Positions 4,548 through 52,919 of a DNA stretch of 55,966 nucleotides are shown here, one piece after another. The position numbers and the translations under genes were made by a program. The notes below the pieces were generated by a model, which was given only the letters and a program-made list of their open reading frames with translations, had not been told where the DNA came from and did no database searches. The stretch spans positions 1 through 55,966 of IMG/VR virus record IMGVR_UViG_3300042301_003333. One strand, 5' to 3'. The stretch is from a virus (Duplodnaviria; Caudoviricetes). The number at the start of each line of letters is the position of its first letter. Position 1 is the first letter of the stretch.

Positions 4548-5312
4548 ATGAAGCCCCTGTCTGAACTCGCCCCCTGGGAAAACTACTCCGGCCCCGAACT
4601 CGAGGAGCGCGTCGATCTGCCGCCCGAGCCGGAGCCTGTCGCCCGACCTGAGCCCGTCGTCGTCACCCTCGACCCGAGCGACCGCCGTCGAGGCTGCCTC
4701 CGGTTCGCCGGCGTCGAGAACGAGCGCCTTGTCGAGACCATCGCGACCGGCCCCGCCTTCTGCCCCGCTTTGCCCGGTCACGAGGGTAGCCAAGCCGCCG
4801 TCGAGGCCGTCGCCGCCTTTCTCGCCCGTCCCGAGCTCGCCACCCTCGTCCTTGCCGGCAAGGCCGGTCGCGGCAAGACCTACGCCGCCATCTACCCACT
4901 CGCCCACCCGTCGCTCTGGGACATGGCGAAGCACAAGGTCTGCCAGTTCCTCCACGCCTCCCGCGTCACCGTCGGCGACCGCTGGACCGCCAAGCGGGAC
5001 GCCTGCATCGACGCCCACCTCCTCGTCGTCGACGACCTCGGCCGCGAGTCGGGCGATTGGGCGAGCGACCAGGTGCTCTCCCTCATCCTCGACCGCCACG
5101 ACAACGGCCGGAAGACCATCATCACGACCAACCTCCGCCGGTCGTCCAAGGTCGTCACACCCGAGCAGGCCGCCCAGTACCGCAACCAGTTCATGGACCT
5201 GCGGTACACCGACAGCCTCATGTCCCGCCTGTCCGACCCGACCGCCACCCGCTTCGTCGTCTGCAGGGGCGACGACATCCGCCCCACTCACACGCAGGAG
5301 TCCGCCGAATGA
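4548..5312 (+). CDS. DnaC/IstB-like AAA+ helicase loader
   Basis: Walker A GKAGRGKT, Walker B LLVVDDLG, RHDNGRKTIITTN, SLMSRL. Confidence 0.9.
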   Translation: MKPLSELAPWENYSGPELEERVDLPPEPEPVARPEPVVVTLDPSDRRRGCLRFAGVENERLVETIATGPAFCPALPGHEGSQAAVEAVAAFLARPELATLVLAGKAGRGKTYAAIYPLAHPSLWDMAKHKVCQFLHASRVTVGDRWTAKRDACIDAHLLVVDDLGRESGDWASDQVLSLILDRHDNGRKTIITTNLRRSSKVVTPEQAAQYRNQFMDLRYTDSLMSRLSDPTATRFVVCRGDDIRPTHTQESAE

Positions 5313-5806
5313 AGTTCATCGCGCCGAAAGCCCGCTCGCCCCTGCACCGCGCCGCCGAGGGCGCCGTTCAGCGCCTCGTCGAGACGCCCACCCTCCGCAC
5401 TCTGCTCGTGCTCGACGACCCAGCCGACATCTCGGCGCCGGCTGTCGCCCGCTACCTCATGGCGAGCCTCACGCCCGACAACAAGGTCGGCGCGCCCTGG
5501 TGCGACATGCTTGAACCGAACATGGGTATCCCGTCGGACGACGAGATGCTCCGGGTTCAGAACGCGCCGGTCGTCGTTTTCTACAAGGCGCACGGGTACA
5601 TCGACCCCGGCGTGCTTTACGACTTTGTGATGCTCGTGCGGAACCGGCACGAGCGCGGCCTGCGGACCATCATTACGAGCCGCGTCGAGAAGCTGGCCGA
5701 GTGGTGCCATTGGCTCACGACTCACGGCGTCAACAGAGACGAGGTGCTGCCGCTCTGGAATCTGCTCCAGTCCGACACCGGCCGTGCGGTAATACTTACC
5801 AAGTGA
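5309..5806 (+). CDS. Degenerate DnaC-like paralog lacking Walker motifs
   Basis: ATGA-coupled; retains RNRHERGLRTIITS but has no GxGK or DD. Confidence 0.6.
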   Translation: MKFIAPKARSPLHRAAEGAVQRLVETPTLRTLLVLDDPADISAPAVARYLMASLTPDNKVGAPWCDMLEPNMGIPSDDEMLRVQNAPVVVFYKAHGYIDPGVLYDFVMLVRNRHERGLRTIITSRVEKLAEWCHWLTTHGVNRDEVLPLWNLLQSDTGRAVILTK

Positions 5807-6084: not shown

Positions 6085-6203
6085 CATAATCACGACCAGC
6101 AGGAACGGCCCGTCCGTCGCGTCTGGCGCGTCCGCCGTCCGCAGACAGCGGCACCCCTTCCGAAGCGCCCCCGACCCCCTTTCCGTCCGCGAGGCACCCG
6201 TCG

Positions 6204-6434
6204 ATGAGCGGCATCCTGTACGACCAGTCCTCCGGCATCGGCACTGCCGGCCGAGCTCGCGCCCGCCGCGACCAGGTCATCGGCATGTCGCACTCCGTCG
6301 TCCGCGAGACCGACGACGAGCTCGCCGTTCGCAGGTGGTTCTCGACCGAGGTCTCCGTCTGGCGCAGGCTCGGAAGCCGCAAGGATGACCTCTGGGAGCT
6401 TGTGACCGGAGAAACAGACAGGGGCGGCCCGTAA
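6204..6434 (+). CDS. Hypothetical protein
   Basis: 76-aa ORF with GAGG upstream. Confidence 0.45.
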   Translation: MSGILYDQSSGIGTAGRARARRDQVIGMSHSVVRETDDELAVRRWFSTEVSVWRRLGSRKDDLWELVTGETDRGGP

Positions 6435-6600
6435 CCTGCACGGCACCGCCCCTCACGCCAAAACACCACCTCATGGGGCGTCGAACCGTCGGCCACGCGC
6501 TTGCGCCCGTGTCCAGCCCGAGATGGGCCGGTCCGCTCCTTAGAGTCGGTCGCGCTCACCTATCGCGACCCCGCACCCCGGCGCTAGGGGATCCGGTCCC

Positions 6601-6819
6601 ATGACCTACAAAAAGCCCGACCCGTCCGCCGCCGTCACCGTCGTCTGCTACCCCACCGGCGGCGCCTCCCTCGCCTGCGCCGACGGCCACGTCTGGTGCG
6701 GGTCGACCCGGCTCAAGGGCTGGCAGTCGGGCGACGGCGTCGAGGACCACGCGCTCTACTTTCCGACCGTCGCCCGCGCCCTCCAGTTCGCCCGAGGCAA
6801 CGGCTGGGTGGGAGAGTAG
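6601..6819 (+). CDS. Hypothetical protein
   Basis: 72-aa ORF, GC3-rich codon usage, GGGGA upstream. Confidence 0.6.
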   Translation: MTYKKPDPSAAVTVVCYPTGGASLACADGHVWCGSTRLKGWQSGDGVEDHALYFPTVARALQFARGNGWVGE

Positions 6820-8852: not shown

Positions 8853-9037
8853 CGCCCGAGGAGCTCATCACGCTCGACTGCTGCGAGCGTGCCGAGGACA
8901 CCGGCCTCGTGACCTTCAACGAGGACAGCGTCCGTTGGGAGATCGTCCGACTGCAGCCCGACGGGTCGACCGTCGCCACCGGCATTGACCGCTGCCCATG
9001 GTGCGGCAAATGGCTGCGCCACCTCATCGCCGGATGA
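8849..9037 (+). CDS. Small Cys-rich hypothetical protein
   Basis: GTGA/ATGA-coupled; CC...IDRCPWCGK. Confidence 0.65.
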   Translation: MTPEELITLDCCERAEDTGLVTFNEDSVRWEIVRLQPDGSTVATGIDRCPWCGKWLRHLIAG

Positions 9038-11211
9038 CCAACCCGTCCGTCTACGACCGCGAGACGGCCGAGCGCCTCGCGATGGTCGAGCTCCGCCGCG
9101 CCGGGCAGCGGGCGAGGCAGGCGCACTACGCGCTGGCAGCGGCCGACCCGCTCTCGTTCGCCGAGATGGTCCTGCGCGACACGGCGACCGGCGAGAAGAT
9201 CAAGCTGTCGGGCGAGCAGATTCGGTGGCACCTCGCCGCCGAGCGCAGCCGTCGCACGGTCCTTTGGGCGCACGACCAGTCGGGCCGGTCGCTCTGGGCG
9301 GTGTCCCGCATCCTGCACACCCTCGGGAAAAACAGGAACGCGCGCATCGTCATCGTCGGTCGCACCCTGCCGGCGGCTCGGACGGTCCTCGGGCTCGTCG
9401 CCCGCTACCTCGACTCGTCGCCCGAGCTGCGGCATGTCTTCCCCGACCTGCGCCTCGATGGCGAGCCGAAGGCCCGCAGCCTCGCCGTCGCCGGCCGAGT
9501 CCACCGCGACCCGTCGGTGCAGGCCGTCGGGACCGGCCTCGGCCTCGTGTCCCGCGCCCCCATCGACCTGCTCGTCATCGACGACGCCCTCGCCGACGAG
9601 CACGTCCGCACGCCCGGCGCGCGCCAGCTCATTCGCGACTGGTTTGAGGCGGTCCTTTTTGCATCCGTCTCGCCCTTCGGGCAGGTCGTCGCCCTCGGGA
9701 CGCCGCTGCACCCCGAGGACGCCGTCTCCCGCCTCGCCTCGCAGCCTGACGTGCAGGTCGTCCGCTCGCCGGTCGTCGACGCCGCCGGCGTCCCGACGTG
9801 GCCCGAGAAGTGGTCCGTCGAGCGCGTCGAGCGGCGCAAGAAGGACATGGACGAACAAGCGTGGCAACGCCGGATGCTCGTCGCGCCCATCCTCTCGGCC
9901 GACATGCGGACCGCCGCCGAGCCGCTCAACTCGTTCATCGAGCGCGTATCGGGCGGCTCGCTCATCGCCCCGCGTCACCTCGCGCCCCTCGTCGCCCTCC
10001 TCGAGCGCGCCCGACACGAGCCGGTCCGAGCCGTCGTCTCCGCCCCGCCGCAGCACGGCAAGTCCGAGACGATCATGCACGCGCTCGCGTGGCACCTCGC
10101 CCAAGACCCGACGCGAACGCACGCATACGTCACCTACGCGGGCAACTTCGCGACCGACCAGAGCCGGCGCATCCGGTCAATCACCGACTCGGCCGGCGTC
10201 GAGATGTCCGACCAGGCGGCGCTCCGTCGCTGGCGCACCGCTCGAGGCGGCGGGCTCATCGCCGAAGGCGTCTCGGGCCAACTCACGGGTAAGAGCGTCG
10301 ACGGCATTTTCGTGATCGACGACCCCTACAAGGACCGCGTCGAGGCCGAGAGCGCGTTGAAACGCGAACGGGTATGGCAGTTCTTTACCGACGTCGCGAA
10401 GACGCGTTTGAACCCGGCGGCCTCCGTCATCGTCGTCCATACCCGCTGGCACGAGGACGACCTCGCCGGTCGACTCGCCAAGCAGGGCTGGGAGCGGGTC
10501 AACCTGCAGGCCGTCTCGCCCGAGGGCGCCCCGCTCTGGCCCGAGCGGTACACGCCCGCGTGGCTCAAGGAGCAGCGCGAGGCGCTCGGCGAATACTCGT
10601 GGGCCTCCCTCTATATGGGCGAGCCACGCCCGCGAGGCGGCGCCGTCTTCCGCGACGTCCGCCTGTACGACCCGCAGACGACCGTGGTCCGCTCGCACGT
10701 CTGGCGTGTGGCCATCGGCGTCGACCTTGCGTACACCGCTCGCGCCAAGGCCGACTACTCGACCGCCGTCGTCCTCGCCGCCGACGGGCAAGGCGTCTGC
10801 TACGTCCTCGACGTCATCCGGGCGCAGGTCGAGGCGCCCGCCTTTGCCTACCAGCTCGCGCAGCTCAAGCAGCGGTACGCCGCCCCGATCCTCTGGTACG
10901 CCGCCGGCACCGAGCAGGGCGTGGCGCAGTTCATCCGCAACCAAGGCGTGCCGCTCGAGGTGCAGGCACCGAAGGGCGACAAGTTCGTGAGGTCGATGCC
11001 GGTCGCCGCCGCGTGGAACGCCTCACGAATCTCGGTCCCGATGAACGCCGCATGGAGCAACGCCTTCGTGGAGGAGGTGCTCGCCTTTACCGGCGTCGGC
11101 GACCTGCACGACGATCAGGTGGACGCCCTCGCCGCCGCCTACGACCAGCTGTTCCCGCAAGTCGCGACCCCGGTCGCGCAAGTCCTCAACCTCGACCTCC
11201 GACGCCGATGA
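9034..11211 (+). CDS. terL: Terminase large subunit with a duplicated ATPase region
   Basis: Intact ATPase (SAPPQHGKS, VIDDPYKD, HTRWHEDDL, LWPERY), RNase H-like nuclease (GVDLA, DYS, GDKFVR, HDDQVDA), plus an N-terminal degenerate ATPase. Confidence 0.92.
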   Translation: MTNPSVYDRETAERLAMVELRRAGQRARQAHYALAAADPLSFAEMVLRDTATGEKIKLSGEQIRWHLAAERSRRTVLWAHDQSGRSLWAVSRILHTLGKNRNARIVIVGRTLPAARTVLGLVARYLDSSPELRHVFPDLRLDGEPKARSLAVAGRVHRDPSVQAVGTGLGLVSRAPIDLLVIDDALADEHVRTPGARQLIRDWFEAVLFASVSPFGQVVALGTPLHPEDAVSRLASQPDVQVVRSPVVDAAGVPTWPEKWSVERVERRKKDMDEQAWQRRMLVAPILSADMRTAAEPLNSFIERVSGGSLIAPRHLAPLVALLERARHEPVRAVVSAPPQHGKSETIMHALAWHLAQDPTRTHAYVTYAGNFATDQSRRIRSITDSAGVEMSDQAALRRWRTARGGGLIAEGVSGQLTGKSVDGIFVIDDPYKDRVEAESALKRERVWQFFTDVAKTRLNPAASVIVVHTRWHEDDLAGRLAKQGWERVNLQAVSPEGAPLWPERYTPAWLKEQREALGEYSWASLYMGEPRPRGGAVFRDVRLYDPQTTVVRSHVWRVAIGVDLAYTARAKADYSTAVVLAADGQGVCYVLDVIRAQVEAPAFAYQLAQLKQRYAAPILWYAAGTEQGVAQFIRNQGVPLEVQAPKGDKFVRSMPVAAAWNASRISVPMNAAWSNAFVEEVLAFTGVGDLHDDQVDALAAAYDQLFPQVATPVAQVLNLDLRRR

Positions 11212-11438
11212 CAAAGAACAAGACGAAGCCAAAAGCCAAACGCATCCACACCGACGAGGCGCTGCCCGTCTGGGCGCTCGACTCCGGCCACGACGGCCTC
11301 CTCGAAATCTACGCGGTGAACGGCCGCCTCGAACTGCGCTGTGACCTGACCTTCGTCAACGACGACTCCGACGACGAGGACGGCCTCGCCCGGCTCAAGG
11401 AAGAGGCGGCGGGCTACGCCGAGGGGAATCGGGAATGA
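11208..11438 (+). CDS. Hypothetical protein
   Basis: ATGA-coupled at both ends; MTKNKTKPK... Confidence 0.6.
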   Translation: MTKNKTKPKAKRIHTDEALPVWALDSGHDGLLEIYAVNGRLELRCDLTFVNDDSDDEDGLARLKEEAAGYAEGNRE

Positions 11439-12316
11439 GCGCAGCCGACGAGATCAAGGCTCGCCTCGCCGGTCGCCGCGTCGTCGCCAGCGTCAGCGGC
11501 GGCAAGGACTCGGCCGCCATGTCGCTCTACCTGACCGAGCTCGGCATCGAGCACGACCGAGTCTTCTGCGACACCGGCTGGGAGCACGACCTGACCTACG
11601 AGTACCTGCGCGGGCCGCTCGTCGAGAAGCTCGGGCCGATCACTTGGCTGGAGCCCAAGCGGAAGATGGAAGAGCTGATTCTTCACAAGGGCATGTTCCC
11701 GAGCCGGCAGCGCCGCTGGTGTACGCAGGAACTCAAGGTCCGTCCTTTGGCGCGACACTTCAAGGCCCGGATGGACGAGGGTGACGACATCGTCAACGCG
11801 GTCGGGATTCGCGCGGCCGAGTCCGAGTCGCGGTCCAAGATGCCCGAATGGGAGTGGCAGGACGGTTTTGACTGCGAGGTCTGGCGACCGCTCCTGCGGT
11901 GGTCCGAGCAGGACGTCATCGACATTCATCACAGGCACGGGCTTCGACCGAACCCGCTCTACCTGCGCGGGGCGCAGCGCGTGGGCTGCTGGCCGTGCAT
12001 CTACGCCCGCAAGGACGAGATCAAGTTGATTGCCGACACTGACCCTGACCGCATCGTCCGTCTGCGAGTGCTTGAAGGACAGGTGGCTGAGAAGGCGCAC
12101 GCCCGAGCCGCCGAGAAAGGCGAGACGCTCAAGAACGACCCCGCGTGGTTCCAGGCGAAGAACGGGGGCACTGGCGACTGCTGGCCCATCGACAAGGCCG
12201 TCGAGTGGTCGAGGACGGCCCGAGGCGGAAAGCAGTTTGAACTGTTCGCCGCCGACTCTCGGGATGCGGGATGCATGAGGTGGGGACTCTGTGAGACGAA
12301 TGGGAGGTCTGAATGA
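11435..12316 (+). CDS. PAPS reductase-family (CysH/DndC-like PP-loop) protein
   Basis: SVSGGKDS, DTGWEH, RWCTQELK, GIRAAES, RVGCWPC. Confidence 0.88.
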   Translation: MSAADEIKARLAGRRVVASVSGGKDSAAMSLYLTELGIEHDRVFCDTGWEHDLTYEYLRGPLVEKLGPITWLEPKRKMEELILHKGMFPSRQRRWCTQELKVRPLARHFKARMDEGDDIVNAVGIRAAESESRSKMPEWEWQDGFDCEVWRPLLRWSEQDVIDIHHRHGLRPNPLYLRGAQRVGCWPCIYARKDEIKLIADTDPDRIVRLRVLEGQVAEKAHARAAEKGETLKNDPAWFQAKNGGTGDCWPIDKAVEWSRTARGGKQFELFAADSRDAGCMRWGLCETNGRSE

Positions 12317-14874: not shown

Positions 14875-15314
14875 TCATCTGCATCGACTTCGACTCGACC
14901 CTTGTCGACGAGTGGGGCCGGAAGTTCTCGGACGTCACGACGCCGCTCAAGCTCATGGGCGGCGCTCGCAAGGCGCTACAGGCGATGAAGGCCGCAGGCC
15001 ACGTCGTGCTCGTCTCGTCGGCGCGAGCAAACCGCGCCCTCCGCATCGACCCCGAACTCGACCCGCTCGTCCGAGCCGGCGTCGTGAAGCTCGACCGCAA
15101 GGCGTGGGAGGCCGAGCAGCCGCTCCACGAGGCGCGCTACCAGCAGATGGTGCAGTTCTGCGCGACGCAGCTCAAAGGGCTCGTCGACGCGGTGGACGAC
15201 GGCGGGCAGGGGAAGCCCGTGGCGGACCTCTACATCGACGACCGGGCGCTTCGGTTCGGTGGCGGCGTGGATGGTCACAACTGGTTCGACATCGCCCGCC
15301 AGTTCGGGGCGTGA
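14871..15314 (+). CDS. HAD-superfamily phosphatase-like protein
   Basis: ICIDFDSTL (motif I), GKPVADLYIDDRA (motifs III/IV). Confidence 0.8.
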   Translation: MIICIDFDSTLVDEWGRKFSDVTTPLKLMGGARKALQAMKAAGHVVLVSSARANRALRIDPELDPLVRAGVVKLDRKAWEAEQPLHEARYQQMVQFCATQLKGLVDAVDDGGQGKPVADLYIDDRALRFGGGVDGHNWFDIARQFGA

Positions 15315-15333
15315 CACGGGAAGACGGGAGACG

Positions 15334-16491
15334 ATGCACCAGGGGACATTTGACTTGCGGGAGGGCGACGCGCTCGACGTGCTGCGCTCGCTGCCCGATG
15401 CGTCCGTCAACCTCGTCGTGACGGACCCGCCGTACTTCAAGGTGAAGGCCGAATGGTGGGACCGGCAGTGGGAGAAGCCCGCCGGATTCCTCGCGTGGAT
15501 GGGGCAGCTCGTCGACGAGTGGCGGCGCGTGCTCAAGCCGAACGGCTCTCTCTACGTCTTCGCCTCGCCGCAAATGGCTGCCCGCGTCGAGGGCGTCGTC
15601 GCCGAGCGCATGAAGGTGCTCAACAGCATCGTGTGGGCAAAGCCGCGCTTCTCGACGAAGGCCGAGATGTTCGTCAAGGGCGACCAGCGCGCCTTCTTCC
15701 CTGCCACCGAGCGCATCGTCTTCGCGGAGCAGTTCGGCACCGACAACATGGCGCGAGGCGAGGCAGGCTACGCCGCCAAGTGCAACGAACTGCGGTCGCT
15801 CGTCTTTGAGCCGCTGCGCGCTTACCTAGACGGCGAGCGCGAGAGGGCGGAGCTGTCGCGAGTGGAAATCGCTCGCGCATGGGGGGGGCTTCGCAAGGAG
15901 AAAAAGCGTAGCGACATGACATCGCACTGGTTTGGTCAGTCACAATGGCAGTTGCCAAGCCGAGCAAGCTACGAGTGGCTCCGTGCGCTGTTTAACGAGG
16001 CGCAGCCGGGCGGAGACTTGCTCGCTCGCGAGTACGAAGGGTTGCGGCGCGAGTACGAAGGGTTGCGGCGCGAGTACGAAGGGTTGCGGCGCGAGTACGA
16101 AGGGTTGCGGCGTCCGTTCGAGGTGTCCGACGAAGTGCCGTACACCGACGTCTGGACGTTCCCGACGGTGCCGCACCGCCCCGGCAAGCATCCATGCGAG
16201 AAGCCGGCGGACCTCATTCGGCACATCGTGCGGGCCTCGTCGCGCCCCGGCGACGTCGTGCTCGACTCATTTGCCGGCTCGGGCGTCGTCGGGCGCATCG
16301 CCATCGAGGAAGGCCGGTCGTTCATCGGCTCCGAGATCGACCCGCACTGGGTCGCCGTAGCACGTCGCAGCATCGACGCCGCACAACCCGTCGCCGCGAC
16401 AACGGGCGGGGCTAGGGACTCGACGAGAAAGACGCGAACGGGGACCGCCTCGCCGTCGCAAGGCTGGTTGTTCGCACGGGAGACGGCATGA
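15334..16491 (+). CDS. N6-adenine/N4-cytosine DNA methyltransferase (beta class)
   Basis: VTDPPY, HPCEKP, VLDSFAGSG; ATG 15334 with GGGAG RBS. Confidence 0.92.
   Translation: MHQGTFDLREGDALDVLRSLPDASVNLVVTDPPYFKVKAEWWDRQWEKPAGFLAWMGQLVDEWRRVLKPNGSLYVFASPQMAARVEGVVAERMKVLNSIVWAKPRFSTKAEMFVKGDQRAFFPATERIVFAEQFGTDNMARGEAGYAAKCNELRSLVFEPLRAYLDGERERAELSRVEIARAWGGLRKEKKRSDMTSHWFGQSQWQLPSRASYEWLRALFNEAQPGGDLLAREYEGLRREYEGLRREYEGLRREYEGLRRPFEVSDEVPYTDVWTFPTVPHRPGKHPCEKPADLIRHIVRASSRPGDVVLDSFAGSGVVGRIAIEEGRSFIGSEIDPHWVAVARRSIDAAQPVAATTGGARDSTRKTRTGTASPSQGWLFARETA
15881..15888 (+). repeat. G8 homopolymer inside the methyltransferase, currently in frame
   Basis: TGG GGG GGG CTT. Confidence 0.9.
16027..16110 (+). 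repeat. Four perfect 21-bp tandem repeats encoding REYEGLR
   Basis: CGCGAGTACGAAGGGTTGCGG x4. Confidence 0.95.
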
Positions 16492-21451: not shown

Positions 21452-22303
21452 ATGTCGGAAACCATCAGCACGACCCCTGTACAGGTTGGCGACGCCACCG
21501 TGGCGACCGCGCAGCCCATCGCACCGGGCAACCTCGTCTCCGGCGACACCGTCGCCGCGCCGATGGGCGCTCCCGAGCAGCCGCAGGGCAAGACCATCTC
21601 GCTGCCCACGTCGGCCTTCGCAAAGCTGAAGGCTGAGGCCATCGAGAAGGGCAAGAAGGCAGCGAACACCGAGATGCAGGCGAAGGCCAAGGCTTTCGGC
21701 TTCGACTCGGTCGACGCGATGTTCCAGGCGCTCGAGACGGCGCGCACTGGCTCGACCGTCGAGACGCAGCAGGAGACGCGGCAGGCTGCGAAGCCCGCGC
21801 AGGCGCAGAAGCCCGCGCAGGCCGCCGGCAACGTCTCGGCCGAGGCGCTCCGCATCGCGAAGGAAATGGAGCGCGCGCGCAAGGAAGCCGAGAAGGCGAG
21901 CCGCGAGGCCCGTCGCTATCGGCAGGAGCTCGAGGAGTACCAGGCGACCGCAGAGATGCGGGAGCACCTGCTCCGAGCCGGCGTTCGCGAGGACGTCGAC
22001 TACGCGCTCGACCTCATGCGTCGCGACATCAACGCGAAGCTGCAGACGGACCCCGAACTCGCGTCGTACAGCACCGACGAGTTCCTCAAGTCGCTCCGCA
22101 CGAACAAGCCGTTCCTTTTCGGCGAGGCGCGCGTGGCCGCGACGACCGGCACTGGCGGCGAGGGCGTGCAGGCGCGCCCGCTCGCTCCTGGGCAGGCCGC
22201 CGCGACGACGGCGCAGGCCGACCAGTTTGACGCCCGCAAGGCGTCAGCCGAGCAGATCAAGGCGCGTCTCGCGCAGCTCGGCGTTCAGTATTCCCGCCAG
22301 TAA
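21452..22303 (+). CDS. Capsid scaffolding protein
   Basis: Helical Ala/Glu/Lys-rich coiled coil, KPFLF motif, directly upstream of the MCP. Confidence 0.75.
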   Translation: MSETISTTPVQVGDATVATAQPIAPGNLVSGDTVAAPMGAPEQPQGKTISLPTSAFAKLKAEAIEKGKKAANTEMQAKAKAFGFDSVDAMFQALETARTGSTVETQQETRQAAKPAQAQKPAQAAGNVSAEALRIAKEMERARKEAEKASREARRYRQELEEYQATAEMREHLLRAGVREDVDYALDLMRRDINAKLQTDPELASYSTDEFLKSLRTNKPFLFGEARVAATTGTGGEGVQARPLAPGQAAATTAQADQFDARKASAEQIKARLAQLGVQYSRQ

Positions 22304-22386
22304 TAGGGCTGGCGGAAGCAACTCCGTCTCGGGTGGCTCGCGGAATCCCCGAGGCTCTCTCACTTCCGCACAGACTCAGGTGACAC

Positions 22387-23808
22387 ATGGCTGACTTTTC
22401 CGTCATTGCCCAGAGCGGCCAGGTCCGCGCTCTCGTGCAGGAGGGCTTGCTCGAGCGCGCCTTCCACGACTCTCTCTTTCCCCGCATGTTGTTCCGTGGC
22501 GATGCCGAGCAGAAGGCTTGGACCGCGAACCTCGGCGATTCGATGTACTTCACGGGCGCCGGGCTGCTCGACATCAGCCTGAAGCCGCAGCAGGCGAACG
22601 TCGACCCGACCCCGTCCACCTACTCGAACGAGCAGTGGATCGGCCAGCTCAACAGCTACTCGGGCAGCATCGACACGAACATCCCGACGAGCGTCAACGC
22701 CATCGCGGACCTGTTCGTTCGCAACGCCCAGCAGCTCGGCCTCGCGGCGGCGAAGACGATCAACCGCCTCGCCCGTGACAAGATGTACAACGCGGCCCTC
22801 GACGGCCAGACCGTCGCCGACGGCGCGGCGTCCTCGGGCGCCTCGACCATCGCGGTCAAGCGGCTCAACGGCTTCACCACGGCGCGCAATCCCGGTCTGC
22901 CGAGCGGCTCGCCGGTGCGCTTCGCTCCGGTGACCAGCGGCAACCCGCTCGCCATCCTCATCAACGTCGGCGGCTCGCTCGTCGCCAACACGGTCGTGGG
23001 CTACGTCCCCGGCGTCGCCGGTGACGAGATCGGGCCGGGCTCGCTCGTGCTCGGCACGCCGCTGTCGGGCAACGTCTCCGACCGCGCCGCCATCCTCGCG
23101 GTCGACCGCTCGGTCGTCATCCGCGCCGCGACGAACGGCGGGCAGGGCATCAACTCGACGGTGGACTCAGTTGACGCCGTGTTCTCGATGACCCAGATCC
23201 GCGCGGCGGTCGCCCGCTTCCGCCAGCAGAACGTCCCCGAGTACGCCGACGGGTCGTTCCACTCGCACCTCGACCCGATCTCCGAGGCCGAGATCTACGA
23301 GAGCACCGAGTTCCAGCGCCTCAACACGAGCTTGCCGGACTATTACATGTACCGGCAGTTCGCCATCGGCCAGATGCTCGGCGTCACGTTCTTCCGCAAC
23401 ACGGAGTGCCCGGTCAAGGAGACCGTCATCGGCGCCGGCGACAGCAACGCGACCGAGGTCTTCACGCAGGATGATCCGTTCGCGGGCGAGATCTGGAACG
23501 CCTCGAACACCGAGATCCACCGCGTGCTGTTCAGCGGTCAGGGCGGCCTGAACGAGTACTACCAGGACGTCGGCCAGTACATCACCGACGCCGGCCTGAC
23601 GGGCAAGCTCGCGACGCCCGCCATCACGAACAACGGCATCGAGGTGAACAGCGACAAGATCACGCTGATCATGCGCGCGCCGCTGAACCGCCTGCAGGAC
23701 CTCGTGTCGACCTCGTGGCGCTACGTCGGCGACTTCGTCGTCCGCACCGACGCCGCCGTGGGCGACAAGAGCCGCTACAAGCGCATGCTCACCGTCGAGC
23801 ACAAGTAA
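22387..23808 (+). CDS. Major capsid protein
   Basis: 473 aa after the scaffold; strongest codon bias in the region; QLGLAAAKTINRLARDKM helix and IGQMLGVTF. Confidence 0.85.
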   Translation: MADFSVIAQSGQVRALVQEGLLERAFHDSLFPRMLFRGDAEQKAWTANLGDSMYFTGAGLLDISLKPQQANVDPTPSTYSNEQWIGQLNSYSGSIDTNIPTSVNAIADLFVRNAQQLGLAAAKTINRLARDKMYNAALDGQTVADGAASSGASTIAVKRLNGFTTARNPGLPSGSPVRFAPVTSGNPLAILINVGGSLVANTVVGYVPGVAGDEIGPGSLVLGTPLSGNVSDRAAILAVDRSVVIRAATNGGQGINSTVDSVDAVFSMTQIRAAVARFRQQNVPEYADGSFHSHLDPISEAEIYESTEFQRLNTSLPDYYMYRQFAIGQMLGVTFFRNTECPVKETVIGAGDSNATEVFTQDDPFAGEIWNASNTEIHRVLFSGQGGLNEYYQDVGQYITDAGLTGKLATPAITNNGIEVNSDKITLIMRAPLNRLQDLVSTSWRYVGDFVVRTDAAVGDKSRYKRMLTVEHK

Positions 23809-23826
23809 GACACGCTGCCTTCTCTC

Positions 23827-24238
23827 GGGCCTCCGTCGCGATGTAGTCGACGGACGGAGGCCCACCAAGGTCGCGACTCGGCAGCTCCAAGCGGAGCGCC
23901 ACACGACAGCGGCAGCAGTCGTGAGTCGCAACCGAGGCGATGTCCACCAGGCGTGGACTAGCAAACGCCTCGCATTGTGACCCTCGGAGAGGGTCACCTA
24001 CCGGCGGGGCTTCGGTCCGCGCCGGCACACGGGGGCAAACCCTGCGGCTTTTGCCGCATGGAACCGCCCCTGATAACTTGGACACGACGGCTTCGGCCGT
24101 CGGGCGTCGAGGGTTCCGAGCTTTGCTCGGACCTCACATGACGTGCGGCGCAGAAGCGTCGTCGGGAGCATCCGGGACAACCTCGGTCAATGGTTGGTTC
24201 GCTCCCGCGACACACACTCTGCGCCGCGTCTTTTTTTT
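23827..24238 (+). ncRNA. Candidate large structured non-coding RNA (~410 nt)
   Basis: At least nine consecutive helical domains, two C(UUCG)G tetraloops, final long stem followed by T8; no credible ORF. Confidence 0.65.
24140..24238 (+). terminator. Long stem plus U8, terminator-like 3' end of the structured element
   Basis: GCGGCGCAGA(24145-24154)/TCTGCGCCGC(24218-24227), then TTTTTTTT 24231-24238. Confidence 0.55.
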
Positions 24239-24249
24239 GAGGATTTCAC

Positions 24250-24531
24250 ATGGGTCGTCCGAGGAAGTACCCGCTCGCCGCGCCGGCAGACGCCGCCCAG
24301 GTCGAGTTCGTCGTCGAGCCGCCGCAGGCCGTCGAGGCCGCGCCGGTCGTCGAGCCGGTCGTCGTCGAGAAGCCGCGCGCGGGCCTCTACCGCGTGACGC
24401 GCGGCGTGTTCTTCAACCAGCACGGCGCGTCGCAGTGGCTTGCGGTAGGGACTCTCATTGACGAGTCCGTCGTGGGCGCGGCCCATATCGCGGAGCTCAA
24501 GAGGCATCGGATTCCGCTCGAGGAGGTGTAG
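24250..24531 (+). CDS. Small hypothetical protein following the MCP
   Basis: GAGGA RBS; MGRPRKYP... Confidence 0.7.
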   Translation: MGRPRKYPLAAPADAAQVEFVVEPPQAVEAAPVVEPVVVEKPRAGLYRVTRGVFFNQHGASQWLAVGTLIDESVVGAAHIAELKRHRIPLEEV

Positions 24532-24533
24532 CC

Positions 24534-24965
24534 GTGCCGTCCCTGCTCACCGACACCGAGAAGGCGCAGATCCGACAGATCCTCGGCTACCCGAACGTCT
24601 CTCGCCTCACGGCGCTGATGGAGCTCTCGCCTGCGCCGCGTCAGCTTTCGTTCCTGCTTGAGCCGGCGATGGACGCGCTGCTTCCGCAGGCGGTCGCCAT
24701 CGTGCGGCAACTCATCTGTCAGTGCGAGGCCATCGAGTGCCAGCTCGGGCAGAGCGCGGACCGCATGCAGGCCGCCTCGGTGGGCAACCTCAAGATGCGC
24801 GCCGACGAGCAGGACGCGCTCGAGAAGCTCTACGTCCGCTTCGGTCGCCGTCTCGCCGACGTCCTCGGCGTGCCGCCGTACCCGCTGTCTGTGCGCTACC
24901 AGACCGACCAGACCGTCAACCTCGGGCCGTACGCGGGCAACCTCCGCATGCGGATGATGAACTAG
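24534..24965 (+). CDS. Probable head-tail adaptor
   Basis: GGAGGT RBS; LTDTEKAQIRQILGYP; helical; gene order. Confidence 0.65.
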   Translation: MPSLLTDTEKAQIRQILGYPNVSRLTALMELSPAPRQLSFLLEPAMDALLPQAVAIVRQLICQCEAIECQLGQSADRMQAASVGNLKMRADEQDALEKLYVRFGRRLADVLGVPPYPLSVRYQTDQTVNLGPYAGNLRMRMMN

Positions 24966-24969
24966 CGCC

Positions 24970-25509
24970 ATGTCGTCCTGCGCCTCAAAGCCGAACCCCT
25001 ACGCGCCGCTGACCTTCGCGGAGATCGAGAAGTCGTTTGCGCGGAAGATGATCCCGCTCGCCGACTCGGCGCGGGCGCTCGGCGTGCGGATGGGCATCAA
25101 GACCTACGAGGTCCGCATCGTTCGCACCGCCTGGACGGGCGCGTTCCGTGGCGAGGGCATGGAGTACGTCGTCGAGGAGTACCAGTTGACGCCGACGCCT
25201 ATGCTCTCGGGCCTCGACGGCATCACTCAGGCGACGGAGAGCGTCGGACAGGTCGAGCAGGGCAACGTCACGCTCTCCGAGATCAGCGGCCGCTACACCG
25301 AAGACTTTTTGCGCGGCTTCGGGCAGGACGGCACCGCTCCGGGACCGAACGAGCAGGTCTATTACGAGGTCCGCTACCCGACCGCCGACGGCGACGGCAT
25401 CCGGCGTCGCTTCTATCTGAGGGCGGGGCCGGCCTACTACGCCGACACGGCCGAGTGGAAGCTCTCGCTCGAGCGGCAGATCGAAGACCGCCCGCCGGAG
25501 CGGTACTGA
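24970..25509 (+). CDS. Probable head closure/stopper protein
   Basis: Beta-rich; gene order in the neck module. Confidence 0.55.
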   Translation: MSSCASKPNPYAPLTFAEIEKSFARKMIPLADSARALGVRMGIKTYEVRIVRTAWTGAFRGEGMEYVVEEYQLTPTPMLSGLDGITQATESVGQVEQGNVTLSEISGRYTEDFLRGFGQDGTAPGPNEQVYYEVRYPTADGDGIRRRFYLRAGPAYYADTAEWKLSLERQIEDRPPERY

Positions 25510-26818: not shown

Positions 26819-28819
26819 ATGGGCGCAGGCTTCATTCAGCGGTTCGGGTCGTTCCCGTCCGTTCAGCAGATTCAGACCATCGAAGGCGTCGTGATCATCG
26901 ACGGCGTCGGGCCGGCGCAGATTCAGGGCACCGGGACCGGCGTGGTCGGCATCGTCGGCGAGTTTGCTGACGTGTCGTACGCGGTGCAGGTCGAGGGCGG
27001 CAACGTCACCTCGGCGCCGCAGCCCGTCTTCGTGACCAGCGACGCCGACCTCGTCTCGAAGGTCGGTCCGTTCGACCCGACGCTCGGCCAGTTCGGCGGC
27101 GCGTGCGGCAACGGCCTCGCTGACATTCGCGGCAAGCGGTTCGCCGGGCTCGTCGTGGCGCCCATCAACCTCGCCTCGTCGAAGGCCGTCCGCCTCGTGC
27201 GCGACCTGCCGACGAACGCCTCGGCGTCGAACCCCTCGCCGGTCGTCCCGATGGTCGGCGCGACCGTCGTCGCCGGTACGCTGTTCCAGGACAACGCGGC
27301 CGAGAAGCAGACGAAGTCCGCCGGCGCGGTCGTCTTCTCGTCGGTCGGGGCGTACGCCTCCGGCGTCGACGGCGTGTCCGTCGCCGGCGGCGCCTCGGGC
27401 GGCCAGCTCTTCAATAGCGCGGGCGGCGCGTTCGTGACGAACGGCGTGTCGGTCGGCGACGCCATCGTCATCGGCGTTCTCGGGACCGACGACGACGCCG
27501 GCACCTATCGCGTGCGGCAGGTCGTCTCGGAGACGCAGCTCGTCGTCGGGCAGCTCGACGGGACCAACTTTTCGTGGGCCGGTGACACGGCGCTCCCGTG
27601 GCGTATCCACGTCGCGGCGACGGCCGACTCGGGCGCGGGCCTGTTCTCGGCGGTAACGCAGTTCACCGTGCCTGCGCGTCCCATCATGGAGAGCGTGGCG
27701 AACGACGTCGTCCTGACGCCGGCCGTGCCCGCCGCTGCGGCGACGGCGACCTCGTGGCAGCCGCTCTCCGGCCTCAAGCTCTGCACGCAGCCCGGCTCGG
27801 GCAACGGTCTGGCCTACACGGCCGCCGTGCAGGCGCCCAACGCGGCGAACAGCACCGAGATCCTCGCGAAATACGGCGAGGTTCTCTCCGCGCTCGAGAG
27901 CGACAGCGACCCGGCGAACACCATCAACATCGTGATGTGCTCGCGCGCCGCGCGGCTCAACGCCTACAACCTGCGGCAGCTCGCCGTGAACCGATCGCAG
28001 GCCGGCCTCGGCATGGTTGCGGTCGTGGCGCCGGGTCTCGCCTGCCAGACGCTTGGCGAGGCCACCTCCTCGAGCTCGGGCGCGACGACGGACCAGGTCT
28101 TCGGTGTGGCGGCCATCGACGCCGCCGGCCGCTCGGACCGCGTCATCTACACCTGGACCGGCGTGCGTCAGTACAACGCCGACGCGGTCGGTATCAGCAT
28201 CGCCACCGCTACGGGCGGTTCGACGACCGACGGCGTGCTCGACCTGACCGCCGCCGGCCACCTGTGCTCGGTGCTCTCGCTCATCCAGCCGGAGCGCAAC
28301 CCCGGCGAGCTGACCGACGTCACTCAGTCGGCGCTCTCGACGGTGCTCGGGCAGCAGCGCGGCGCGCCGGTCCTGACGCGGGCCGACTACGAGGTCATGA
28401 AGTCCTTCGGCATCTGCGGCATCCGTATCGACCGCTCGAGCGGGCCGGTCTTCCAATCGGGCATCACGACGAGCCTGACCTCGGGCCGCACGCGCATCAG
28501 CCGCCGCCGGATGGCCGACTTCATCCAGGACAGCCTCGCGCGTCAGTACAACCTGTACGTCAAGCAGCTCATGAGCGAGAACATCAAGACCGCGCTCATC
28601 ACCGAGACGGACGGGTTCCTCGCGGGCCTGCTGGCGCGGGCGACGCCGAACCTGCAGCGCATCGCGGGCTACACGGTCGACTCGACCGGCGGCAACACGC
28701 CGGAGCTCGAGGCGCAGGGCATCTACGTCATCGGCGTCGCGGTTCGTCTGCTCTCGGAAATGGACAACATCGTCCTGTCCAGCCAGATCGGCGAGAACGT
28801 GGTTGTCACGGTGGTCTAG
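26819..28819 (+). CDS. Contractile tail sheath protein
   Basis: EGVVIID...TGVVGIVGEF N-terminus; SGITT...ISRRRMADFIQDSL C-terminus. Confidence 0.9.
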   Translation: MGAGFIQRFGSFPSVQQIQTIEGVVIIDGVGPAQIQGTGTGVVGIVGEFADVSYAVQVEGGNVTSAPQPVFVTSDADLVSKVGPFDPTLGQFGGACGNGLADIRGKRFAGLVVAPINLASSKAVRLVRDLPTNASASNPSPVVPMVGATVVAGTLFQDNAAEKQTKSAGAVVFSSVGAYASGVDGVSVAGGASGGQLFNSAGGAFVTNGVSVGDAIVIGVLGTDDDAGTYRVRQVVSETQLVVGQLDGTNFSWAGDTALPWRIHVAATADSGAGLFSAVTQFTVPARPIMESVANDVVLTPAVPAAAATATSWQPLSGLKLCTQPGSGNGLAYTAAVQAPNAANSTEILAKYGEVLSALESDSDPANTINIVMCSRAARLNAYNLRQLAVNRSQAGLGMVAVVAPGLACQTLGEATSSSSGATTDQVFGVAAIDAAGRSDRVIYTWTGVRQYNADAVGISIATATGGSTTDGVLDLTAAGHLCSVLSLIQPERNPGELTDVTQSALSTVLGQQRGAPVLTRADYEVMKSFGICGIRIDRSSGPVFQSGITTSLTSGRTRISRRRMADFIQDSLARQYNLYVKQLMSENIKTALITETDGFLAGLLARATPNLQRIAGYTVDSTGGNTPELEAQGIYVIGVAVRLLSEMDNIVLSSQIGENVVVTVV

Positions 28820-37974: not shown

Positions 37975-39143
37975 TGCCGACGATCACCCCGCCCTTCCAG
38001 CGCCGCATCACGAACCCGCTTCAGCGGCCGGTCGCAGCCGACCTCAACCTGCAGGCGTTCTACGACTCGGTCACGCAGAGCTACTTGGCGGGCGCGGTCT
38101 ACTCGGCGTCGCCCGGCGGCAACCCGACCTTCGAGACCGGATTCATCGGAAACAGTTTTCGGTGCTTCGCGAGCACGACGTCTCGGGAAGTCGTCGTTCA
38201 GAAGGGGCTCGGCTTCATCGCGCAGGACGCGCAGGACGACGCGAACGGCGTCAACTCGGGTGCTTACTCGCCGGTCGTGTGCGAGCCTAACGACCCCGAC
38301 GCGGCCGGTCTCTATGTCCCGGTCGACGAGCTCGCGGTGGGCCTACAGCGTATCGACATCGTCTGCGTCAAGTCGCCCAACTACGCGACTGCCGTGCAGA
38401 GCATTGGCCTTCTCAACCCGTCGTCGAGCACGTTCGCCTTTGCGCCGCGCCCGACGCAGTTCACCGAGAACGCCTTCACTGTCACGTCTGGCGACCCCGA
38501 CTTCATCAAGGTCGTGACCGGCACGCCCAGCGCGGGCACGCCGACGGTGCCGACGGTGCCGACGGGCTACGTCGAGATCGGTCGCGTCTATGTCCCGGTC
38601 GGAGCGGCCAACCTCGCAAACTCCGACATCGAGGACCGCCGCCCCGTGCTCATCCCGCACGGTGGGCGAGCGATGACGCTCTCGTTCCTCACGTCGATCA
38701 CGACGACCGAGGTGCTTGGATTCGACTTCGGCAACAACGGTGTTCACGCAGCGGTCCGCAAGGTCGTCGACGGGTCAAACCGTAGGTGGTTTGAGGTCTA
38801 CGTCGCATCGGGTGCCACCAATCCAAGCGTCTTTCAGATGGTCGCGGGTGGGTGGGCGGCGCTAGACGGAACAGGCGCACCGACGAACACGCTGCAGGGT
38901 GGAGCGATGACGGCTGTCTACTCAGAGGAGACGGTCTCGCGAGCGAGTGCGCTGCCCATCTTCGAGGCGGCCGGAACGTACGACGCCCTCATCGGACCGA
39001 CCGTCAGGAGGTTCGTCGTGCTCGCGGGCTTCCTCGACAAGTCGGGCGTCACGGACAACTGCGTCATCAACATCGACGACACCTCTGGCCTCAACGCGAA
39101 TGTTCGTCGCGTTCGTCTCTCGCTCTACGCGCAAGCCTTCTAA
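37974..39143 (+). CDS. Baseplate-proximal tail fibre / fibre anchor protein
   Basis: RIDIV...GTP...PTVPTGYVEIGRVYV...IEDRR. Confidence 0.7.
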   Translation: MPTITPPFQRRITNPLQRPVAADLNLQAFYDSVTQSYLAGAVYSASPGGNPTFETGFIGNSFRCFASTTSREVVVQKGLGFIAQDAQDDANGVNSGAYSPVVCEPNDPDAAGLYVPVDELAVGLQRIDIVCVKSPNYATAVQSIGLLNPSSSTFAFAPRPTQFTENAFTVTSGDPDFIKVVTGTPSAGTPTVPTVPTGYVEIGRVYVPVGAANLANSDIEDRRPVLIPHGGRAMTLSFLTSITTTEVLGFDFGNNGVHAAVRKVVDGSNRRWFEVYVASGATNPSVFQMVAGGWAALDGTGAPTNTLQGGAMTAVYSEETVSRASALPIFEAAGTYDALIGPTVRRFVVLAGFLDKSGVTDNCVINIDDTSGLNANVRRVRLSLYAQAF

Positions 39144-52336: not shown

Positions 52337-52346
52337 GAGTACGCAC

Positions 52347-52637
52347 ATGGCTCTTGTCGGAAACTGCATCCCTGCGAAGAACGACGTGTTCTTCGACTTC
52401 TCTGCGGCCTACGCCCGCGTTCTTTCGGTCACGTCCGAGAACGTGGCGAACGCCGTCTCGTTCATCAAGGTCGAGATTCACGCCGACCAGGCGGCGCGTC
52501 AGGCACAGGCCGTGCCGGTCGTCGGTCGCGTCTACAACGCTCCGACGGTCGATCTCCCGGCGGCGGCTTCGCCCATCGCCTCCGCGTACCTCTGGCTCAA
52601 GACGCAGCCCGACTTCGCCGGATGGGTGGACTCGTAA
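52347..52637 (+). CDS. Small tail-fibre-associated protein
   Basis: AGGAG RBS; C-terminal AYLWLKTQPDFAGWVD motif typical of proteins after fibre genes. Confidence 0.7.
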   Translation: MALVGNCIPAKNDVFFDFSAAYARVLSVTSENVANAVSFIKVEIHADQAARQAQAVPVVGRVYNAPTVDLPAAASPIASAYLWLKTQPDFAGWVDS

Positions 52638-52700
52638 GGTCATGCGTGTCGAGCCTGCTGCGGTAGGGAGCGGGCTGACACGACATCAGGAGACGACACC

Positions 52701-52919
52701 GTGCCCGAATGGATCATCGCAGCAGTACCCGTGGGATTGAGCATCCTCGGCGGCCTTTGGAAGGTCGCCTCGGAGATCAACAAACTGTCGTTCGCGGTCG
52801 ACACGCTGGGCAAGGTTCTTCACGAGCTGCGCGACGACCAAGCGCAGCTTCGGCGCGAGGTCGCCGGTCTCCGCACCGAGGTCGAGGTTCTCAAGGCCCG
52901 AACGGAGTCGCACTCATGA
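52701..52919 (+). CDS. Membrane protein with one TM and a coiled coil (holin/antiholin-like)
   Basis: WIIAAVPVGLSILGGLW then heptads; AGGAG RBS. Confidence 0.55.
   Translation: MPEWIIAAVPVGLSILGGLWKVASEINKLSFAVDTLGKVLHELRDDQAQLRREVAGLRTEVEVLKARTESHS

Follow-up and report, generated by a model that had tools for sequence, protein, structure and literature searches.

What occupies the 441 nt (23809-24249) between the stop codon of the major capsid protein gene and the ATG at 24250 in this uncultured lake phage, where no credible gene can be found? The DNA analysed, hereafter the window, is an IMG/VR virus record of 55,966 nt with a G+C content of about 67% and an estimated completeness of 63%. 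Its capsid gene (22387-23808, + strand, 473 aa) matches phrog_1357, a major head protein, with an E-value of 5.6e-10, and the presence of a tail-sheath-like gene (26819-28819, phrog_23) indicates a contractile-tailed phage. According to the original prediction, made from the sequence, this gap in a genome of overlapping genes is paired almost end to end and encodes a novel large RNA. The description of the genome is only partly true: several other gaps of 200-970 nt appear in our rough map of open reading frames. In the same rough gene map, 972 nt in the middle of the tail region (37975-38946) contain no ORF with high GC3.

The folding of the gap agrees with the predicted RNA. On the + strand, the minimum free energy is -240.8 kcal/mol compared with -183.5 ± 5.6 kcal/mol for 100 dinucleotide shuffles (z -10.25), and none of the 100 folds as well. 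Excess structure was absent from two control gaps of the same window (5313-5700, z -0.67; 52337-52819, z -0.51) and from two coding controls (23368-23808, z -0.41; 24250-24690, z +0.47). Pairing is indeed nearly end to end, and all helices proposed at the outset were recovered within 1-3 nt by a repeat finder and by consensus folding. Since the - strand gives a z of -9.52, close to that of the + strand, the strand is not decided by folding energy alone. The parts of the RNA and its immediate surroundings are listed in Table 1.

Table 1. Features of the capsid-downstream gap and of the start of the following gene (positions in the window).
Feature	Position	Strand	Remarks
Whole non-coding gap with RNA	23809-24249	+	z -10.25; 144 pairs
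H1, 16-pair hairpin	23827-42/23846-63	+	19 nt past the capsid stop; no U-run behind
Three-way junction, closing helix 23869-79/23923-33	23869-23933	+	arms 23880-88/23893-900 and 23903-10/23915-22
M0, helix 23934-39/23966-71, asymmetric loop, inner hairpin 23942-47/23953-58	23934-23971	+	two double-change pairs
H4, 9-pair hairpin 23977-85/23989-97	23977-23997	+	three double-change pairs, one with a U-G intermediate
H5, UUCG-loop hairpin	24001-24025	+	invariant G-U pair
M1, outer helix 24030-36/24066-72, hairpin 24040-48/24053-61	24030-24072	+	strong covariation
H7, UUCG-loop hairpin	24085-24102	+	conserved single strand 24073-24084 in front
H8, helix 24104-09/24139-44, inner hairpin 24111-21/24125-34	24104-24144	+	three double-change pairs, one with three pair types
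H9 / 3' domain, stem 24145-54/24218-27 and 24156-69/24201-13 around M2	24145-24227	+	model R2
M2, enclosing helix, 5' loop, hairpin 24178-82/24192-96	24163-24207	+	descriptor parse
Pseudoknot of M2, likely	24172-74 with 24184-86	+	base changes in relatives, permutation test
T8 run	24233-24240	+	directly past the last stem, 10 nt before the ATG
GAGGA ribosome-binding site	24241-24245	+	precedes g93
g93, small conserved protein	24250-24531	+	profile from 17 positional analogues

Protein searches of viral, metagenome and genome contigs returned relatives of the capsid gene with 41-100% identity, including 36 loci in viral contigs and 34 in metagenome contigs. The close group among these (alignment A6) has eight rows, the window and seven distinct sequences with 87-100% capsid identity, and a mean identity of 94%. 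Across it, 144 pairs in 19 helices are conserved, with 99.5% of the cells paired. Double changes were found at 12 pairs and in 28 cells, numbers that none of 500 column shuffles reached, and when the partners were moved by 1-3 columns, 0-1 double-change pairs were left. Three covarying pairs each lie in H4 and H8, and one pair in an arm of the three-way junction changes from U-A to C-G in four of the eight sequences. H5 is invariant in the group, hence uninformative for covariation, and H1 shows no covariation there. A long-range pairing of 23865-69 with 24077-81 was also considered, and the variants in the close-relative alignment give it no support. The compensatory changes, here and in the distant relatives described below, exceed those of the controls: the gap encodes a conserved structured RNA.

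Two further comparisons within the close group bear on the nature of the sequence. Identity in the gap amounts to 91-95% when the window is compared with its close relatives and so exceeds the 78-90% identity at third codon positions of the flanking capsid gene (78-86%) and of g143, so the gap is under purifying selection. In addition, the outer helix of M1 contains two extra base pairs in the window, and the relatives carry paired deletions of 2 nt, one in each arm (at 24031 and 24070). These deletions are present in seven of the eight aligned sequences, together with further 1-nt indels, and recur in DNA runs X2 and X5. ORF 23940-24461 is open in the window itself, and its translation was among the outcomes that would have told against the original prediction. 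Because the indels break its frame in the relatives, we conclude that it is not protein-coding. Likewise, an extension of the capsid protein into the gap by frameshifting was dismissed, the alternative frame ending at the stop codon at 23846.

The direction of the RNA can be read from its base changes. In the close group, one-sided changes proceed through G-U, for example in H4 and H9, where C-G becomes U-G; there are also several G-U pairs without any variation. When the helices are mirrored onto the - strand, 1016 of 1077 cells pair, compared with 1071 on the + strand, the structure itself having been derived on the + strand. Family-wide, the 3' domain contains 10 G-U and 1 A-C cells. Taken with T8, which follows the last stem, and with the orientation of all genes nearby, these G-U data place the RNA on the + strand, as was originally thought.

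How far does the RNA extend beyond the close group? Sixteen of 21 capsid-downstream gaps fold far better than their shuffles, with z from -4.8 to -14.4 in a rough test of eight mononucleotide shuffles each. Both M1 and the 3' domain are found again in relatives with capsid identities of only 41-60%. In M1, an outer helix encloses an A-rich internal loop that is conserved (GGCAAACCC ... GGAACCGCC) and has a C-U mismatch, followed by a hairpin of variable sequence. Its covariation score over 16 sequences is 0.476 compared with 0.112 after shuffling (0 of 500 shuffles reach it), the pairs of its hairpin and outer helix occurring in up to four pair types, and the invariant loop motifs are retained down to 41% capsid identity. 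A DNA pattern made of the two invariant halves of M1 matched viral contigs 59 times, where about 39 matches would be expected by chance for a pattern of this size. Twenty of the 59 adopt the shape of M1, and the count of capsid neighbours covers these 20: ten lie on contigs already in the capsid set, and the ten new contigs have this capsid gene just upstream in every case and a homologue of g143 downstream in nine, the remaining contig (L093) ending early. A covariance search with model R1 located M1 at 26 places in 49 sources and in 6 of 28 metagenome loci; wherever these searches placed the RNA, it lay between the capsid gene and a g93-like gene. The counts indicate that only part of the family has the canonical M1. 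At locus L083, an unusually long spacer of about 1000 nt separates the capsid stop from the g93-like gene; M1 lies at 4700-4751 and the 3' domain at 4814-4909, with some 850 nt more sequence before them.

The second module is the 3' domain, the long stem that holds M2. MAFFT alone left its distant forms out of register. The M2 cores were cut by coordinates and by a descriptor search. The descriptor, which runs from an enclosing helix through a C-rich 5' loop, a C-G-closed hairpin of 5-6 pairs and a short 3' loop back to the enclosing helix, fits 19 of 22 sequences, and each pair of the hairpin occurs in 3-5 pair types. The first bases of the hairpin loop are complementary to the 5' loop, so that a pseudoknot may form. 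The two strands read CCG/CGG in the window and CGG/CCG in seven relatives, with the pair 24173-24185 changed from C-G to G-C; in a second set of relatives, group B, they read CCG/CGG in three members and CTG/CAG in two. Cognate loops form 3.22 bp on average compared with 2.72 bp for non-cognate ones, a value reached in 81 of 10,000 permutations. Judged from these base changes, the pseudoknot is likely rather than proven. A pairing of the M1 loop with the 3' loop of M2 was discarded, as it fits the window and L019 only.

Model R2 was built from the five group B sequences only. Of 14 other loci, 10 have its best match where the 3' domain was expected, among them L025, L083, L032 and L019 (E 5e-4 to 0.012) and, in the window's own group, L004 (3391-3486, E 0.13). 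In an alignment of 11 divergent rows of the 3' domain, 95.2% of the cells pair and 23 of 26 pairs are double-changed, although an alignment fitted with R2 favours pairing. Within group B, compensatory changes occur at 9 of the 29 pairs of the 3' domain and at 36 of the 112 consensus pairs of the whole RNA. The modules of group B follow the order of the window (junction, M0, hairpin, M1-like element, 3' domain), its junction is shaped like the one at 23869-23933, and a counterpart of M0 can be made out by eye. Model R3, representing the 5' half of group B, detects this domain in L041, L032 and L029 (E 1.9e-8 to 5.5e-4), with a weak match in L046 and none in the window's group or in nine other loci. 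As R3 misses the window's group, homology of the window's 5' half to that of group B is a matter of visual likeness, as is that of a single strand and hairpin in L008 which resemble the H7 region.

The RNA belongs to no catalogued family. At gathering thresholds, Rfam 15 has no match in the whole window and none in 20 relatives (138,750 nt); at E-values up to 10, the window yields four chance-level matches only (the best with 17.3 bits against a threshold of 40), and at E-values up to 5, nine loci yield nothing consistent. ARAGORN found no tRNA or tmRNA gene in the window. The absence of a known family, tRNA or tmRNA, as originally perceived, thus holds in these searches, and Rfam 15, whose models range from riboswitches and ribozymes to 6S, RNase P and SRP RNAs, includes GOLLD and ROOL. 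Processive antitermination RNAs such as HK022 put and Bacillus EAR, the latter also in Rfam, are about 70-120 nt long. By analogy with these cis-acting folded RNAs of long operons, the gap RNA could alter the polymerase before downstream terminators; they are, however, shorter, and the gap RNA matches no such model. In full-text searches of the literature, we found no account of a conserved RNA downstream of a capsid gene. A survey of IMG/VR lists 8495 candidate structured RNAs, 1241 of them with predicted terminators (PMC10690425); it draws on the database that holds our record and likewise relies on covariation among viral contigs. The candidates named in its main text lie upstream of capsid genes whereas ours lies downstream, a comparison with that text, the lists being in its supplements. 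GOLLD and ROOL, as described in PMC12286853 and PMC7567579, are likewise phage-borne, several hundred nucleotides long and rich in covarying helices. GOLLD, at about 800 nt according to PMC7567579, is longer than the 360-430 nt of the gap RNA. Instead of lying near tRNA genes, the gap RNA is locked to the junction of the capsid and g93 genes, and it has no match in Rfam 15. We therefore regard it as a previously uncatalogued, well-supported family of large structured phage RNA.

The layout of this junction in the relatives is instructive. From the capsid stop to the g93-like gene, 240-1000 nt are found in about 36 of 46 loci and no more than about 150 nt in ten, the start codons being approximate. 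These roughly ten relatives have no RNA; their 60-150 nt hold a GC-rich hairpin with a T-run, followed by the ribosome-binding site and the g93-like gene. A textbook hairpin and T-run right before the ribosome-binding site, in the first 60-120 nt past the capsid stop, is seen in L020, L103, L130 and L028. As the RNA-less relatives carry a plain terminator there, the sequence of capsid gene, terminator and g93-like gene is the apparent ground plan, and in most members the large RNA would thus replace or add to a simple terminator. On a quick capsid tree with weak support, the 32 long-gap rows are spread throughout and the seven short-gap rows require five changes.

An intrinsic terminator after the capsid gene is familiar from T-phi of phage T7. 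The gap RNA occupies the same place and shares a GC-rich terminal stem with T8, but adds about 350 nt of conserved structure, invariant loops and a pseudoknot. T8 is the only U-run of the gap in the window, and a run of T7-T9 is kept in all eight sequences of the close group; T8 is likely the 3' end of the RNA and an intrinsic terminator. That T8 follows the stem 24145-24227 was noted by eye, since the long stem exceeds the 3-8-nt loop limit of the terminator scan and was missed by it. Beyond the window's group, the U-run behind the last stem is short or broken, so termination at this stem is not conserved there. The position of H1 is taken by another hairpin in the relatives, and in several of them a U-rich tail follows it. 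In the RNA-bearing loci L007, L008, L082 and L101 this tail places the RNA beyond a likely capsid terminator. The junction begins directly after H1 in the relatives, leaving no obvious room for a promoter, and no sigma-70-like promoter was found in 22000-25000, a weak result, as it depends on which promoters the host polymerase uses. Between the 3' end of the RNA and the next start codon there are always 10-40 nt, and several relatives form a small hairpin in which the ribosome-binding site is paired to a CCCU/CUCC stretch.

The gene that follows, g93, belongs to a small protein family that the profile finds in 46 of 58 unique loci, always between the capsid gene (or the RNA) and the homologue of g143, as at 3427-3753 of L012 and 1335-1649 of L034. 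Its members have a basic N-terminus, a linker rich in Pro, Ala and Glu, and a C-terminal domain of about 50 aa. Searches of Pfam, PHROG and the PDB gave no match, and the Atlas scores were only 0.81-0.83, under the lead level. The arginine-rich N-terminus invites comparison with an RNA-binding arm in the style of lambda N, an idea that was dropped as the RNA-less relatives are similarly lysine-rich there. In two near-identical loci, L015 and L016, the stretch from the g93-like gene to the g143 homologue differs in length by about 600 nt (L015, ~6150-6770): g143 lies 1358 nt from the capsid stop in L015 and 755 nt in L016, and L015 has an extra ORF of 205 aa in this stretch.

Elsewhere in the window, the large terminase gene (8998-11211) encodes 737 aa with a Terminase_6N match from residue 348 and about 345 unexplained N-terminal residues. 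It may be what the original prediction called an unusual terminase; for the packaging or prohead role that was linked to it, no support was found. Between the terminase and the head genes lie a PAPS-reductase-domain protein (11435-12316, E 1e-24) and an N6/N4 DNA methylase (15259-16491, E 3.4e-40), which may form a DNA-modification module. GenBank phages show no DNA similarity to the window. The nearest cultured phage by protein, Streptomyces phage Kromp, has a capsid protein of 29.7% identity and a post-capsid gap of 58 nt, and consequently a cultured model is absent.

At least part of the window occurs in 24 listed sequencing runs, 23 of which are DNA runs with labels of lake water, freshwater, aquatic or simply metagenome. 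In seven runs, at least half of the sampled words are present, one of these runs possibly being the source sample, and three DNA runs that were examined carry variants of the gap. The single RNA run contains contigs of a relative with about 90% identity; they cover the capsid gene, 23892-23961 and 24315-24539, with none over 23962-24276, and give neither levels nor ends. They thus speak neither for nor against the abundant late RNA of the original prediction. The capsid gene is present in only two metagenome bins, one of Acidimicrobiaceae and one of Gemmatimonadaceae (L096 and L097), and L097 carries M1 at 62 bits. Because the binning of phage contigs is unreliable, these bins are host hints at best and we name no host.

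With structure, conservation, strand, fixed position and absence from Rfam established, what does the RNA do? The reading that we prefer, with a probability of roughly 0.4, is that it acts in cis as a control element, placed where the capsid gene gives way to those for neck and tail. An RNA of about 400 nt and several domains would be made on the + strand as the tail of the late capsid transcript, presenting in order H1, the three-way junction, M0, two hairpins, M1, two hairpins, the terminal stem with M2, T8 and the ribosome-binding site. Such an element would be an elaborated version of the plain terminator of the RNA-less relatives. Most capsid transcripts would end, and be protected, at the last stem and U-run, while a set fraction of the polymerases, and then ribosomes, would continue into g93 and the genes for neck and tail. 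The invariant loop of M1 and the pseudoknot of M2 could serve as docking sites for a factor (protein or small molecule) that tunes the read-through. We favour action in cis because the position is fixed, all ten new M1 contigs being linked to this capsid gene, and because the hairpin and T-run of the RNA-less relatives make an attenuation point before the next gene seem part of the ground plan. The T8 run directly behind the last stem, the nearness of the 3' end to the next start codon and the lack of a recognisable promoter point the same way. The suggestion in the original prediction of a device controlling read-through into the tail genes is close to this reading and would fit the anatomy. 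Against it stands the fact that a terminator or stabiliser needs one hairpin, not some 18 helices, invariant loops and a pseudoknot; the complexity of the RNA suits a specific binding or catalytic role better. The poor U-runs of distant members and the terminator-like H1 of some RNA-bearing relatives also count against it.

The complexity also speaks for the main rival, a tenable possibility in which the capsid transcript gives rise to a stable RNA of its own through cleavage at H1 or behind it and termination at T8. Acting in trans, this RNA might, for instance, bind a protein of the host or phage as its decoy or scaffold, or it might be ornate and self-assembling in the manner of GOLLD and ROOL. 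Besides the size of the RNA, with its helices and pseudoknot, the persistence of the invariant loop motifs down to the most distant capsid proteins speaks for it, and so does the loss of the RNA in about 10 of 46 relatives, which makes it dispensable in the way of accessory genes. Abundance would come from riding the strongest late promoter. Abundant non-coding RNAs do occur in phages, as in ICP1 (PMC7567579) and in mycobacteriophage L5 (cluster A), which makes a stable leader RNA of about 500 nt in an operon (PMC5712189). The L5 RNA stands at the start of the early operon, in contrast to the gap RNA, which follows the capsid gene. Its structure is not known to covary, and a sequence relation between the two is not expected. 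However, a free-standing RNA gene might move, whereas this one is found only between capsid and g93-like genes; the contigs of the RNA run, with no cover over 23962-24276, give no sign of processing or abundance; and a search of 151 genomes from the class to which one putative host bin belongs returned no M1, although such a search is uninformative when empty.

Unlikely is a riboswitch-like leader that governs g93 and the genes for neck and tail by sensing a ligand or protein. M1 and M2 would do the sensing in such a switch, and its expression platform would be the last stem with its pyrimidine run. Pseudoknots and invariant internal loops such as those of M1 and M2 are typical of binding pockets, and the 3' end of the RNA abuts the ribosome-binding site, which hairpins sequester in some relatives. 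Yet we identified no mutually exclusive alternative fold, the RNA is far larger than known aptamers, and no Rfam riboswitch matches at E-values up to 10. This switch overlaps the cis-acting control element that we prefer and is separated from it only by the sensing step.

Very unlikely is a passive structured spacer that is folded just to resist Rho and RNases and has no specific partner. It would explain the series of stable hairpins with UUCG and similar loops, and also why helices covary in the close group while many loops vary, but it leaves unexplained the invariant single-stranded and internal-loop sequences of the distant relatives as well as the covariation of the pseudoknot, and the RNA-less relatives suffice with 60-150 nt. 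Hardly credible, finally, is a hidden protein-coding gene or an element that works as DNA (origin, packaging site or mobile insertion): folding of the - strand is about equally good, the ORF is open in the window and presence and absence are scattered over the capsid tree, but the one-sided changes through G-U would be A-C on the other strand, the mirrored helices pair less completely, indels of 1-2 nt break the ORF, the gap has no notable direct repeats, and the RNA diverges in step with the capsid gene instead of being near-identical across hosts.

Few RNAs of bacteria and phages combine a length of more than 300 nt with a conserved fold of this complexity, and most of those known have proved biochemically unusual. 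A more ambitious, and doubtful, reading is that the gap RNA represents a new class of large ornate RNA of phage capsid operons with an active function. It may be a late-operon switch from head to neck and tail genes, in which the M1 loop and the M2 pseudoknot sense a signal (for instance a metabolite, or capsid or neck protein in free form), or it may be a new ribozyme or RNA particle, self-processing or self-assembling, that is released from the capsid transcript.

The RNA has a fixed address, with the structural gene of highest expression on one side and the neck and tail genes on the other; relatives with a plain terminator at the same place are natural "knock-outs", and two small, sharply conserved modules are open to mutation. 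The ratio of head to tail gene products in a tailed phage, and the part that an RNA may play in setting it, thereby become testable. The family is suited for submission to an RNA database, and it offers a means of recognising a clade of uncultured phages from freshwater and soil.
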